DNA of 64,000 nucleotides from positions 32,612,001 through 32,676,000 of the forward strand of contig OX597832.1 in NCBI GenBank assembly GCA_951406725.2, read 5' to 3'. The translations under genes were made by a program, and so were the position numbers. The notes under the pieces are model-generated. The model had not been told where the DNA came from, made no database searches, and was given only the letters and a program-made list of their open reading frames with translations. Of the stretch, positions 1,003 through 53,975 are shown in pieces. The DNA is from Octopus vulgaris (Eukaryota). Numbering within the stretch: position 1 is the stretch's first letter; every line of letters begins with the position of its first letter.

Positions 1003-2765
1003 ATGGCTAGCCCTGAGAGGCCAAGGATGGCTAGCCCTGAGAGAGACGAAGAGGAAATGGAACGGATATGCGAATTGAGATTGGATTCAGACTCTGAGGA
1101 GGAAGAGAACATAACAGAAAAAAAAAAAATGTTAGCAACTACAAAAAGAAATATAGCAGTGCCAAGCCTGGAGGCTGGAAAGCTAAATGGACAATTGAAT
1201 TTTGCAGCACCGGCTGGCGCAAAAGTAAAAAAAATAGACATGAGTAATTTGGAGGAGGCGAAAAAGTTTTTGACGAAAGAGGGAATCGAAACCAAAGTGA
1301 AGACTCCACAACAAATCAAAGGAAAGCGTTGAAAAAAGAACGCTAATATATAATAAAACAAAACAAAGGAGTAATAATTGATTTTGTCGACGAGAAGAAA
1401 ATTGAGAAGTTTCTTGAGCGCCTATTGGGTAAAAATCAAATATTTAACTCGTGGAAAGAAAGTCGCAACAGTAGAGGTCAGATTCGGGTCAGAAAAAGAA
1501 GCAAAACTTCACTCGGTAGAGCCGATTAGAACGGAAGAAGTGGTGCTTCTACCAATTTATATTGGTAGAAGACCCTCCAGAATAACAAATGCTAACATAC
1601 CACCTGAAGTGGAACCCGAGTGTTTCGTCGCGGCAATAACGATGGGTCTGGCAAGTAAACCGAAATTGTCGACGGTGTCGTGGAGGAGCCACGAAACTAG
1701 GTCGGTCAAAGGGTAAAAATTACCCTATAGGCTGAGCCAGCTGCACTGGAAGAAATAACGGAGATCATAGAGGTTGGTGAGAACCGTCTGCCTGTAATGG
1801 TAGAAGGTCGCCAGCCATGCTGTTTTCAGTGTGGCGAAAAAGGCCACCTCAAAAAGAACTGCAAACCAGCAGAAGAAAAACTCACGAGTGAACCTGCAAC
1901 AACATCAAACGTTTCAACAACTCCGGTACCAGATGAGTAAGCAGGGGTGGGGTGACAGCCACAAAAGGAAACACAAAAATCCCCCCCCCCCTGTAAAAGA
2001 GAAAAAGGATGAGCCGAGGAACTTCAAAAAAGCCAAGGTACCGGAGAGGAAAGAAAGTTATTATGTGGCAGTAAGGACTACAAATAGAGATTAAATGAGA
2101 AAAATTGAGATAAAAAAAATTACAGAAAGTAGAAAGAGAAGAAATTATCAAAGACTGTGAAGTGAACAAAATTGCCCAAAAATATTTCAATGAAGTTTAT
2201 AATGAACTCAGGAAGGTTGTTGGCCCTTTACGTCTAGACATATCAGACAACTTATATGTAGGCCTCATCCAGCCGACTCCACGAGTCCGGAAGAAAGAGG
2301 AGGCGGGTTCTCTCCCGCCTTTAGATAGCGAATGACTGAGGTAAAACATTTTTGGCTGTTCACGTAGGTTGCATAAATGTGCGTGGCCTGATGTCAGACT
2401 GGAAACACGGGCGCTTCCAAAACTACATCAGGTCACAAATTTAGATGTTGTTGTTGCTACTGAAACTCAGTTGAAGGGGCCAAGAGATCTACTCCAGCTC
2501 CTGCATGGCTACGAGAAATTTCTTTCTCCATGCCGGGGGGGGGGCGAAGTGGCGTGTTAGTCCTACTTAAATGAAATCGAGTTTCAGAGAAAAAGTTAAT
2601 TTTTTCTGACCCAGAAGGTAGGCTGGTCGTCTTAGATCTGACGTTCAGTTGTGTATGGAAATCAGGCTGGTGACGGTGTTCGCACCCAATTTACGTCAGA
2701 CTGAATATTACCGAGACCTAGAGAGGTTTTCTAGCACGTCACGTTCCATAGTTGTGTTAGGGGTC
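1003..2765 (+). mobile_element. Degenerate L1/Tx1-like non-LTR retrotransposon, 5' part (ORF1 with CCHC zinc knuckle, start of ORF2 APE endonuclease)
   Basis: ORF1 is broken by stops and frameshifts. 1821-1862 encodes CFQCGEKGHLKKNC (CX2CX4HX4C), preceded by LPVMVEGRQP. From about 2365, across frames: VGCINVRGL, LDVVVATETQL, DPEGRLVVLDL and IRLVTVFAPN, which are APE endonuclease motifs. Confidence 0.85.
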
Positions 2766-5254
2766 TTTAACACTCATTTCCTAATCCCCTTTCCTCACTC
2801 CTAACTAAATACAGCAATGCTCTTTGTACGATATGCTTAGGACTCGATTCATCAAACACCCTTAAATGAGAAATTAACATCAACGATATATTTTGGAATA
2901 TATTTAATATTGTCGAAGAAACGTTATCGAAACTAAGAAAGATATTCATAAGCGTTTTCAAATGATATTATTAATAATTCGTGCCAGACGATTCCATATA
3001 AAACTTGAAATATTTCCTCAGGCGGAATATTCTGAGTCTCTGCAAATCAATAATGTTCTGCAATATGACGTAACTACTAACATGTCCGTGACTCTTGTGG
3101 CTCATTACTTCATAATTATCGAACATTTTCTTCCTTTACATAGAATAATTATACGGCATCCATAGCTGCAATGAATTAGAGTTGATCCTTTTTAGCAGAG
3201 AGAAGGTTTTTCGTGTAACCTATAGCAAGTAGAGAAGAATGATTCTATGTGATTTGGAGTCGCCTTGTTTCAATTGTCACCGGGTCTCTATCTTCATCTT
3301 GACCCCTCTCTGTACAATGAACTCTCAAACGTGTTCGGCGTCAGTCAACATCAACATTAGAATGGATTTGTACATTTGCTATTCTCATATCAACCAGACC
3401 CTCTCTCATAATTTTCAGAGAAATCATATTCTAAAATGTGAAAAGCAGTGTTTTGGAAGAATGTTTAAATTGGTTGATATTTATTTTAGCGCTTTATGTT
3501 TTGAGTTCTAAGCCCGCCGGGGTCAGCTTTGCATTTCTTCATTTCCAGGGACTATAAAATAAAGAACCAACAAGCATGGGGATCAATGGTAATAAGAAAC
3601 ACTCTCTTGTACTTAAATCAAAAGCAATATTCTCAGGAGTGATTTCGCCCGTAAGCTCTACATCTGCACATCTCAATTAACTCCCCCCAAATATCTTAAA
3701 GGACTTCCACCTTAAATATGGAAAACAAAACTTTAAAAATGTTTCAAAAATATGTCGTAATGGATATTTGCTTCGCAGTAAATGCTGTGCTGTAAGCATT
3801 TGACTGAACGGTTATTGTATAAAATATTCATGAATATTTTAGCATTGTAATTAATATTTCGAAACCAAAAGCTGTTGCTATCGCGACCTTTGAGAAATCT
3901 ACTGCGAACTATACGTCAGATCCCGCTACCTTGCATCGATACAAGATATTGAATGGTACTTATAACAAGCAACAGAGTGAATAATTTGTCGTGAGTATGA
4001 AGTAAATTTAATGTATTTCTCTTCAAGAGAATATAATATATCTTTACTTATGACAGCTTTATGGCTTCCGAATTGTGAATCTCTCATTCGTTATCTTAGG
4101 TGTTGTATGTTAGATCCTAGCACAGAATTATGTGAAGTAGGTGTAGAATGATTGATCAACATAGAGATATAAAACTGCCATATAAGCATCATTTTAAGAG
4201 ACCGAATGTCAACAATATGCGAAGAGAATTAGGGTGGGAATCTCGCCAAGTATATTATCAAATTGTTGACCTTAGCTCTGAAATTATCCACTCGTTCATA
4301 TTAAAGTATGAATCTGTGCCTGGCTGTAAATTATTAACTTCCGGCAAATTCCAGTTGAAAATGACTGCCATATTGTAATTCTTGAATCAAATATCTATAA
4401 ACTAGAAGCTCGATATTTACTGCATTATGATTACAGCTTAAAATGGATGCCTGTTTGTCGGTAAGATGTAGTAATATGAAAATGTAGGTAAAGAATAGAG
4501 AGATCCTCTATAAACTCTCACCCAAAGAGGTGAAAGGTTATCATTACTTTACTTCATCACTTGGCAATTGATGCTACTTGGTATCGAGATTTGGGAAAGA
4601 AGGGTCATTTTAACAAGGATAAATAGTTCACAAGAGGTGCCTGTTCGTGATCTTTAACGGCTCCGAAACAAGCCTTTTATGAATAATTACAGACGTATAA
4701 TTTTGCCAAATTTATAATAGCAGCCATTCACATGCTTCCGAATGTATATTAGTGAAAAGAATGAAGTCAAATTACAAAGACGTGACATGTGACTCATAAT
4801 AGTCATCCAACATCCGTTTCGGAATTAAACGATTATCATTGGACAGTTATTAATTATTTATTCCATCTTGCGAACTTTTCGAAAGTTTTTCACGCGTTGT
4901 ATCATTGCCAATGGCTACGAAGAATTTATTAAAGGAAATTTTCGACAACATATTTTTTTTTCTTTAGGATCTATGTAGTCAAAGAGGTTTTTTATTAAAT
5001 AGAGGCCCGAATCTTTCATTAAAAGGAAAGAAAATTATAATTCACAATGCATAACTGATATGTGTATTGATGGAAAACATAAGGGAGCAACTGTAGTATA
5101 TTATATCAGCTTATTTTATTCTTTTCACTCTCAAATACCCAATCTAAGATCGAATCTCATCAATGCCAACTTTGAAAAACTTTCATTTCTGCTTCGATTA
5201 TATTGTACATACATACTTACATACTTACATACATACATACAAAAATAAATATAC

Positions 5255-31670: not shown

Positions 31671-32679
31671 AGGCTGAATTTTGGGGTGAGTCATTTCAAA
31701 GTTCCCTTCGCAAACACGATGTCATGTGGCCGTAAGTTTTCGAAGCAAATCACTTAATCGCTCAGCTCTCTCACGCATATGGCTTAGCTTAACAAGGTCT
31801 TATATGTTTGAACTTCATCAAAAGGAAACTGTTTCGAAACCTGTCAAATTATCTGTACATTTAGTGTAAGGTTCCTGTGTTGTGACACTCACACGCTTAT
31901 TCGTCTTCAGAAATGCTTTAAAAATGCTCCAGTCTGATAATTCTTAGTTTATTTTAATGATATGATCGAACCTGTACGTGGTTGGTTCATTATGCAAACG
32001 ACTGTGCAACGTTGACCATACCAGAATTTGAACTCAGTATGTAGGGAACCAGAAAACACACTATTGTGTTTTCCCGAAGCTGTATCTGATCTGGAAACCC
32101 ACCACACGTCAGTAAATAGTATAATTATGTTTTCAATATAAGCCACAAGGCCAGCAGTGAGTGCATGGATTGGTCTACGATCCCAATCAGAAATTGATTG
32201 GTTCTTTATTTTTCGGATCGGAATGGGAGAAAAGCAATGTTAGTGCCTTTGGGATTTGATCCAAGAGCGTAAAATCTCGGGGAAATTATTTTTTGGTATT
32301 TTGTCCAAATATCTAAAGTTTTAAGTATTTATTAATAAGTGTGTTTATATAATTAGTTATTGATTTTTTTGTCACAAATTAAGATAAAGTTCAGTAATTT
32401 TGAGGGGGCGGGTGACAAATCAATTACATGTACACCTACATATGGTTTTAATGAAGGCGAAATTATAAAGCCGAAATTGATAATAGGTGGTTTTGAACCT
32501 TGAACATAAAAACAAGTACAAGGCATATTTTTGGATGACCTAACACTTTGAGTAATCAACGACACCAAAACGAATAGCTGTGATAATTTCTGATCTTGAC
32601 ACGAAGCCAAGAATATTAAAGGTTAGGCTATTAAATCGATACAAGTTTTTAAATGGTATTTTTATTGAACCTGAAGTCA

Positions 32680-52708: not shown

Positions 52709-52866
52709 AATACATACATATATAATAATAATAATCATAATAAAAGACAGAGGTAGAGATGAAAGCAGAGTAAAGGTAAAAAGATTGGGGGCAGATAGAA
52801 AGCAAGAACTGCAGAAGTCAGAGACAAAGGAAGGGAATGTGTGTGTATATATTTATATATATATAT

Positions 52867-53547
52867 ACAAGAAAAAAGCAACAAGAATGGATTAGTTGTT
52901 CAGTACAATTGTTTCATACGAAGAACAGATTTATTAAAAACTGCAAATATTGCAGTAAATACACGTTCCCCGTATTCATCAGCCAAAACACATATGAGTT
53001 TTCAAAACATCCTAGGGGGTGAGGCTACCCTCATGAAGTATCGAAGAGAGTTCTATGAAAAGCAAAGTTAGATTGTAAGCAGACTTAAAATATTTTCTAA
53101 TGATGCACAGTTTTATATAAGGTTTTTAAAAAAGATTGTTAGCTTCACAGAAAAGGTAAATCCATCCATAATAATGCAGGTGTAATTTCCGGAGATATGA
53201 GGAGAGATTTTGTTCTCAGAGAAGATGAATGTATCCATATTAATGCAGATGTAAATTTCCTGATATATGAGGAGAAGATGTTGATCACACAACTATTCGT
53301 TTCGCAAAACTCAAAGAAGTTTTGCGAATTCATTTTGCTGCAATATTTGCAGCTTTTAATAAATCTGTTCTTCGTATGAAACAATTGAACTGAACAACTA
53401 ATCCATTCTTGTTGCTTTTTTCTTGTTTATAATTACCCCACATTATTTTATGGTTTATACCATAAAGATTTCTGCTGCATCTAAGTTAAGTACCACATTC
53501 ATGTGAATTCATTGGAACTCACTTGAATCTTAATTGTTTTACTGAAA
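52867..53547. mobile_element. Non-autonomous Penelope-like element in (TA)n with 93-bp inverted repeat
   Basis: Arms 52867-52959 and 53334-53426 differ at 3 positions. The left arm abuts (TA)n. The right arm continues about 120 bp to another (TA)n. The element contains a hammerhead. Confidence 0.75.
52898..52989 (-). ncRNA. Apparently intact type I hammerhead ribozyme
   Basis: UUUGG CUGAUGA AUACGGGGAAC...GUUCUUCGUAU GAAA CAAUUG UA|CUGAA. 5-bp stem I, 11-bp stem II, palindromic ACAAUUGU stem III and a canonical core. Confidence 0.85.
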
Positions 53548-53548
53548 T

Positions 53549-53597
<49 letters not shown>

Positions 53598-53814
53598 ATG
53601 TATATAGAGAGAGGGAGGCACAGTAAAATCTATTTGCCAACGTAAAGTGGCAGTCCTCATTAGGACAAGGTTACTGCCTTTTTTTTTTATCCCGATGAAA
53701 ACATCTTTTCCAGGTGGCTACCGACGCACATCTATGTTTTTATATCTCGAACAAGGGACCTAATGTCCCCACTCAGCACCTCCCTCTTTCTATATATATA
53801 TATATATATATATA

Positions 53815-53975
53815 TACGACGGGCTTCTTTCAGTTTCCGTCTCTCCCAAATCTCCTCACAAGACTTTGGTCGGACCGAGGCTATAGTAGAAGACACTTGC
53901 CCAAGGCAGTGGGACTGAACCCGGAGCCATGTGGTTGGTAAGCAAGCTACTTACCACACAGCCATTCCTGCACCT
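53815..53975 (-). mobile_element. tRNA-derived SINE 5' part
   Basis: ctatagtagaagacacttgcccaagg..gtgggactgaacccgga..cttaccacacagcca is the reverse of the SINE head seen at 47257. Confidence 0.8.

Follow-up and report, generated by a model that had tools for sequence, protein, structure and literature searches.

The locus

The window, by which we mean the whole 64-kb stretch of Octopus vulgaris DNA under analysis, is AT-rich and laden with microsatellites. Two of these flank an insertion that consists of two fragments of a Penelope-like element (PLE) in opposite orientation (Table 1). The sense fragment carries the hammerhead motif and a 'short' end, reaching the TA repeat 36 nt past the cut site. 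The tail of the inverted fragment corresponds to the 5' UTR of the element. This fragment is not a ribozyme, because CUGAUGA is missing and U16.1 is changed to A (at 53388), but it includes 98 nt with 96% complementarity to 52862-52959. The fold-back between the fragments is likely an integration scar of the template-switch or snap-back type. The internal duplication of the 3' UTR is common to family copies. A list of open reading frames showed what look like repeats and transposon-like fragments. Directly to the right of the insertion, at 53640-53960, lies a different common interspersed repeat with 70-88% matches at many fetched loci.

Table 1. Features of the insertion and of its hammerhead motif (positions in the window)
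Feature	Position	Strand	Remarks
TA microsatellite target, left flank	52843-52867
5'-truncated sense fragment of Hydra-clade PLE	53311-52868	-	3' UTR only, no ORF
~70-nt internal duplication in element 3' UTR	53144-53289	-	80% identical
11-bp fold-back between the two fragments	53301-53328		arms 53301-53311 and 53318-53328
Inverted 5'-truncated fragment	53334-53548	+	'long' end in TA repeat, 159 nt past equivalent site
TA/TG microsatellite target, right flank	53549-53601
Type I hammerhead motif of PLE 3' UTR / pseudo-LTR (pLTR)	52899..52987	-	predicted cut 52904/52903
Stem I 5' strand, UUUGG	52987-52983	-	partner 52903-52899; two G-U wobbles
Core C3-A9, CUGAUGA	52982-52976	-
Stem II arm, 60 nt	52916..52975	-	basal helix 11-12 bp vs 7 bp in family
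Stem II 5' strand	52975-52965	-
Inner hairpin CUGCA/UGCAG within stem II arm	52955-52941	-
Stem II 3' strand	52926-52916	-	11 bp including two G-U, plus 12th pair G-U
GAA (G12-A14)	52915-52913	-
ACAAUUGU, palindromic stem III	52912-52905	-	8 bp as dimer; 2 bp + tetraloop as monomer
H17 = A	52904	-
Stem I 3' strand, CUGAA	52903-52899	-

The hammerhead motif

The initial annotation described an intact canonical hammerhead and named its core, its three stems and the hairpin inside stem II. Each part was found on the minus strand where it had been placed, and the cut site is correct. In standard hammerhead numbering, CUGAUGA, GAA, A15.1-U16.1 and H17 are all present, and the 11-bp stem II with its CUGCA/UGCAG hairpin gains a twelfth, wobble pair. 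"Intact" stands for the core, the motif being the only intact hammerhead in the window, but "canonical" does not: pair 10.1-11.1 is A-U instead of G-C, stem I contains two G-U pairs, and the palindrome of stem III requires a dimer. The stem I duplex is predicted at +0.5 kcal/mol (nearest-neighbour), joint second-weakest among 16 motifs compared. The 60-nt stem II arm has no short terminal loop 2 of the kind that contacts loop 1 in canonical hammerheads.

A descriptor scan of the window returned this motif as its single match, and a relaxed descriptor again returned it alone, against 0.08 matches per block-shuffled window. There is no second hammerhead on the same strand in the 64 kb. Seven further CUGANGA half-cores, at 396 (-), 25422 (+), 25508 (-), 25812 (+), 31910 (-), 34725 (-) and 48570 (-), fail even the relaxed descriptor; the one at 31910 is followed by GAAAC after about 75 nt and may be what is left of a long-arm hammerhead.

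A chance match within AT-rich repetitive DNA could be suspected, since Rfam finds no hammerhead in the window, either at the gathering threshold or with the limit relaxed to E 10 (14 matches), and the minimum-energy fold of 52890-52995, in which stem II is formed and stems I and III are not, has a modest z-score (-2.32). The lack of an Rfam match is likely due to the 60-nt stem II arm. None of 200 dinucleotide shuffles of the window gave a descriptor match, the core is invariant and the stems change in a compensatory manner among relatives (see below), and the position agrees with the published site of PLE hammerheads. Coincidence can therefore be dismissed almost entirely; the motif is a genuine hammerhead-ribozyme sequence, far beyond chance.

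The parent element

In long relatives an ORF for RT and GIY-YIG lies upstream of the hammerhead on the same strand. The full-length layout is a hammerhead-bearing pLTR, 209 nt, the ORF, a 3' UTR of 1.1 to 1.5 kb and a second hammerhead-bearing pLTR. Two same-strand hammerheads occur 4.2-4.66 kb apart in six long copies, and in seven copies the cut of the first is 208-212 nt upstream of the ATG. An unbroken frame of 970-984 codons (796-3750 in L072) is present in three sister copies (L072, L077 and L080; ~81% DNA identity) out of 20 that were fetched. None of the eight long copies nearest the window's subfamily (L035, L036, L059-L064) has one. L006 and L005, 2.6 kb apart, contain no ORF.

The L072 protein, 957 aa from its Met, contains RWK (residue 37), DKT (124), YRDD, CxCX5C, VIY..YIG, CxxC..E and CxH. 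The linker is CxCX5C, a CCHH motif is absent, CxxC and CxH surround the E and N residues, and a single Cys stands between VIY and YIG. L060, a copy that belongs with the window in one subfamily and is 85% identical over 536 aa, has RWK and DKT as well. Pfam recognizes RT (E 7e-4) and GIY-YIG (E 0.009-0.02), both below gathering cut-offs. Among the best 120 RT relatives, DK[TS] is present in all 120, RW[KR] in 111 and CxCX5C in 107; Argonauta hians is the sole named source among them. In the proteins of L072, L077 and L080 there are inserts rich in Asn (28% over 330 residues), which most relatives lack; the 120 relatives have a median length of 707 aa, against 957 aa in L072.

By motif, the element is assigned to the Hydra clade, whose definition these proteins match (Craig et al. 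2021, PMC8557442). Copies also show other Hydra traits, namely insertion into (TA)n, pLTRs in direct or inverted arrangement, a tail at one end and a hammerhead close to the 3' end. The unit of 4.2-4.66 kb departs from the "generally short (under 3 kb)" elements of the clade, but that trait is descriptive, not defining. The Neptune clade, first suggested by the TA targeting, was ruled out on protein motifs.

A second, unrelated PLE frame, of 551 aa with RT and GIY-YIG, lies in the same genome (L034:4348-6000, minus strand; C10 near 13325350-13327000). With a CX4CxxC linker and a CxxC inside the endonuclease it is Neptune-like by motif, and it is 24% identical to the Hydra RT over 224 aa. Hammerheads of two further families were also seen (L079:6422 (-), L082:4839 (+), L079:5618 (-) and L060:7737 (+)), with stem II arms of 56-66 nt; their stem III is a palindrome or nearly so, and all but one of the four motifs enter TA-type repeats ~40 nt past the cut.

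Copies of the family

A 231-nt query against the 2.8-Gb genome gave 1304 first-look candidates, the best 40 of which, the self-match aside, scored 93-96%. Single motifs of the family had 186, 308, 308 and 464 exact genome matches, and controls had none. Family copies are nested 5' truncations that share a 3' end in TA repeats and often lie head to head: an opposite-strand partner was found at 19 of 30 loci, and a same-strand pair within 1.5 kb at two (one insertion seen twice).

Both halves of the core are intact in 19 of the 30 sampled copies, so that singling out the window copy as the best candidate for an active ribozyme was an overstatement. Nor is its long stem II a hallmark of the family. 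For core plus stem II, the genome has 186 exact matches to the family's form and one (itself) to the window's. The window copy departs from most of 28 compared copies at five letters (52968, 52967, 52964, 52956 and 52940), three of them seen in none of the 28 and two in two copies; two neighbouring letters of the five make stem II 11-12 bp long instead of 7. This extended perfect helix is thus private to the window copy and may perhaps have been templated by the opposite arm. Two copies, L093 and L121, have internal deletions of the stem II arm; L121 retains both core halves with a shorter arm, which makes it a possible natural control.

The prevalence of short copies, the AT-rich sequence and the presence of a type I hammerhead within an animal genomic repeat would suit a non-LTR retrozyme, a source of circular RNAs made of small tandem repeats without coding capacity. 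Retrozymes, however, are tandem repeats of 150-450 bp (PMC7229834), whereas the copies here are 5' truncations of a 4.2-4.7-kb element, neither tandem nor, at the level of the family, non-coding. The predominance of opposite-strand over same-strand partners also speaks against a retrozyme, and the linked RT/GIY-YIG ORF contradicts it, which makes this origin hardly credible.

Selection on the motif

In 12 aligned representatives the core is invariant except at N7. Stem I is found in three states (C-G/G-C, U-G/G-U and U-A/A-U), its two columns reading C-G/U-G/U-A and G-C/G-U/A-U, and stem II cells are 100% paired. Overall, 96% of cells are paired and five pairs have changed on both sides. The covariation score is 0.281, versus 0.205 +/- 0.017 for shuffled and at most 0.084 for slid alignments, the sequences being hand-picked and related so that shuffle counts are not probabilities. 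Pair 10.1-11.1 is G-C in three, G-U in six and A-U in three. The window's subfamily has the double-wobble state of stem I together with A10.1-U11.1. The compensatory changes of stems I and II among sister subfamilies indicate that the motif is selected in the element. The window's own subfamily has reached at least 186 copies with its wobble-weakened stem I.

Copy ends and the template

Copy ends are bimodal. In a tally that required sequence downstream of the cut, and hence was blind to ends at the cut, 39 of 84 ends fall between +34 and +45 and 30 between +150 and +167; 12 copies run on (10 into the ORF's beginning) and three end elsewhere. The PLE "tail" of this family is therefore the ~120 nt between two fixed ends, ~36 and ~157 nt past the cut. 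Tails of 30-40 bp have been described for PLEs (PMC8557442).

Copies do not accumulate at the cut itself. Exact genome matches just 3' of the cut and spanning it are equal in number (308 each), and only one of 30 copies has a 5' end within 2 nt of the cut. An excess of upstream-only matches (464 versus 308) had suggested copies that end there, but it was rejected as subfamily variation: in 20 regions drawn from the excess, all 25 matches continue beyond the cut, and 23 go on into CTGAA. The template was, for this reason, uncut or re-ligated.

In Anolis carolinensis Poseidon, the tail has been linked to two RT start sites, and hammerhead cleavage is dispensable for insertion in vitro (Frangieh et al. 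2024, PMC11167929). By analogy, the endonuclease would nick a TA repeat and RT would start at two positions of the RNA; it would copy across an uncut or re-ligated hammerhead and halt early, leaving short- and long-ended fragments head to head. In the full-length element, the selected role of the ribozyme would be exercised by two hammerheads pairing through the ACAAUUGU palindrome and cutting slowly as a dimer, thereby trimming the element RNA.

Alternatively, the family hammerhead may cut and re-ligate the full-length RNA, and the resulting circle may be the true template, with RT starting from +36 or +157. This concerns the family and not the activity of the window copy, and would yield the pLTR-ORF-pLTR layout. 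A circular template has been proposed for PLEs (Cervera and De la Pena 2014, PMC4209133); it fits two direct hammerheads one unit apart, stems under selection and the lack of copies that end at the cut. The same data, however, suit an uncut linear template, the dominant one in vitro for Anolis Poseidon, where RNA-seq ends at the cut are absent (PMC11167929), and the copy number reached by the window's subfamily with a weak stem I also argues against the circle. We consider the circle possible but unlikely.

Predicted activity of the window copy

Statements about activity are nearest-neighbour predictions, in which Mg2+, non-canonical pairs of the core, loop contacts and chaperones are ignored. 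In the excised 106-mer, stem II has a probability of 0.95-1.0 (0.01 in family-type copies), stem I of about 0.02 and stem III of 0.004, so that the stable monomer stem III of a canonical hammerhead is lacking. The active-like fraction is 4e-4, compared with 3e-6 in family-type copies, and the folding penalty 4.8 kcal/mol, compared with 7.2-7.7. Stem III is predicted at +2.4 kcal/mol as a hairpin and at -6.4 as an 8-bp dimer duplex. The active-like dimer (-47.6 kcal/mol) lies 3.0 kcal/mol below two monomers (-44.6) and 2.5 above the best dimer (-50.1). In the sister motifs L068, L080b and L082, which have G10.1-C11.1, the active-like dimer is the best fold; the two motifs of L079 and that of L060 have a shifted stem II register and were constrained without stem II, hence their dimer energies are not comparable. 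Slow cleavage of the excised dimer in vitro seems plausible from these energies, in accord with the minimal PLE hammerhead of S. mansoni, which does not cleave singly and cleaves at a low level as dimers and trimers (PMC4209133).

The situation is different in context. In a 731-nt transcript, the predicted stem probabilities are 0.00 and the penalty is 62.6 kcal/mol. The 98-nt inverted duplex is predicted at -140.8 kcal/mol, the z-score for masking is -15.6, and in minus-strand transcription the antisense arm comes ~370 nt ahead of the 3' half of the ribozyme. In read-through RNA the arm is thus predicted to mask the entire 3' half. The motif would be left unmasked if transcription began between 53333 and 52990, or if the duplex underwent A-to-I editing.

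The initial annotation had proposed that a minus-strand host transcript could be cut here co-transcriptionally, which would make the site an exapted RNA-processing signal. The intact core, its being the sole intact motif in 64 kb, and the private changes that extend stem II into the dominant fold of the isolated RNA are all compatible with that proposal. However, the window offers no same-strand partner for a dimer, stems I and III of the monomer are predicted scarcely to form, the masking arm would be transcribed first, and the core is kept no better than in most of the sampled copies. On these predictions host-RNA cleavage at the site is unlikely, and an exapted, active ribozyme is very improbable.

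Among the sequencing runs listed as containing the sequence, none is recorded as RNA. Contigs from four runs guessed to be RNA, compared with 52868-53545, do not alter this assessment. Family-like contigs cover the motif in these runs and three bridge the cut site, and at 52964 and 52967 the entire depth carries the family letter, not the window letter; such contigs drop rare variants, give neither strand nor ends and may be DNA or come from other individuals or species, and so do not count for or against activity. All four runs have a loose end at 53391, which was considered as a cut product; since at a second loose end, 53404, the same letters return into family sequence, this was rejected and the end was read as the stem I of another subfamily. 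In run X1, contigs of the tail and 5' UTR (53420-53535, ~88% match) have a summed depth of 1800-3600 against ~150 over the hammerhead, a run only guessed to be RNA and a measure that cannot rank expression.

The annotation's observation is confirmed, and its interpretation is supported in part. Very probably the locus is the hammerhead of a Hydra-clade PLE within an insertion that is truncated and lacks an ORF; the inverted duplicate is predicted to mask it, and it likely does not cut. As modelled, the window copy is most likely a silent relic.

Relation to known systems

The family shares with Hydra-clade PLEs, including Hydra-1_Obim of Octopus bimaculoides (PMC8557442), a single ORF with RT followed by a C-terminal GIY-YIG, the RWK, DKT and CxCX5C motifs, the absence of CCHH, the CxxC and CxH that surround E and N, and TA repeats as targets. 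Common to them as well is a type I hammerhead close to the 3' end whose stem III is nearly palindromic. Compared by eye rather than by computation, the protein of Hydra-1_Obim and the family protein P0121 are collinear. In the hammerhead of Hydra-1_Obim, as parsed in the supplement, the first pair of stem II is likewise A-U and follows one bulged G, but the sequence is different, so that the family here is a separate one. The pLTRs are clear here, while Hydra-1_Obim is listed with none. The 1.1-1.5-kb 3' UTR is a further departure from the Hydra-clade elements described in PMC8557442, and the stem II arm is 57-60 nt, while Hydra entries in its File S2 have about 10-25 nt.

The minimal and dimeric PLE hammerheads of PMC4209133 are similar in having a stem I of 4-6 bp, a stem II base of 7 bp, a palindromic stem III, a predicted dependence on dimers and mostly solitary or opposite-strand truncated copies; opposite-strand pairs 100-700 bp apart were already recorded there. 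Dimeric PLE hammerheads were also reported by Lunse et al. 2017 (cited in the review PMC6765202). The window motif, in contrast, lacks the conserved G10.1-C11.1 and the extra nucleotide after A9 reported in PMC4209133, and carries an inner hairpin within its long stem II arm. Long second loops are on record in other PLEs, namely PLE-X1_sMoe and the Naiad "half cores" 35-50 nt apart.

In Anolis Poseidon also, two fixed ends downstream of the hammerhead define the tail and copies span the cut site (PMC11167929). However, it belongs to another clade, and its hammerhead overlaps the ORF start instead of lying upstream of the ATG; the tail of the family here is ~120 nt.

Penelope-like elements have been named in Octopus vulgaris (PMC13282606), in a main text without the words hammerhead, ribozyme or Hydra. 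No description of the hammerhead of this family, or of a long Hydra stem II arm, was found in the literature searched, which left Repbase, Dfam and most subscription journals outside. Judged from its sequence, the element is a new family of a known clade, with a ribozyme of a known kind and a long stem II arm.

A broader reading draws on several subfamilies and on the two further TA-ending families of this genome, and takes their hammerheads as a long-arm class (56-66-nt arm, inner hairpin kept) that Rfam misses and in which the arm is a working module. As a place of docking or RT binding, for example, the arm could tie priming at +36 and +157 to cleavage and re-ligation. We regard such a class as doubtful; if it were real, the series of strong, wobble and restored stem I would offer a direct test of the role of PLE hammerheads in transposition.

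Implications

As a single locus the window copy, one decayed transposon fragment among hundreds, carries little weight. The function of PLE hammerheads, by contrast, is posed as an open question in PMC8557442 and PMC11167929, and there the family is of modest value: this genome offers graded stem strengths, unbroken ORFs in three of 20 copies, sharp copy ends and an unusually long tail. Since long-arm hammerheads evade Rfam, such genomes contain more hammerheads than are counted. Read-through transcripts of the head-to-head layout, seen at 19 of 30 loci, would form long dsRNA, possibly a substrate for editing.
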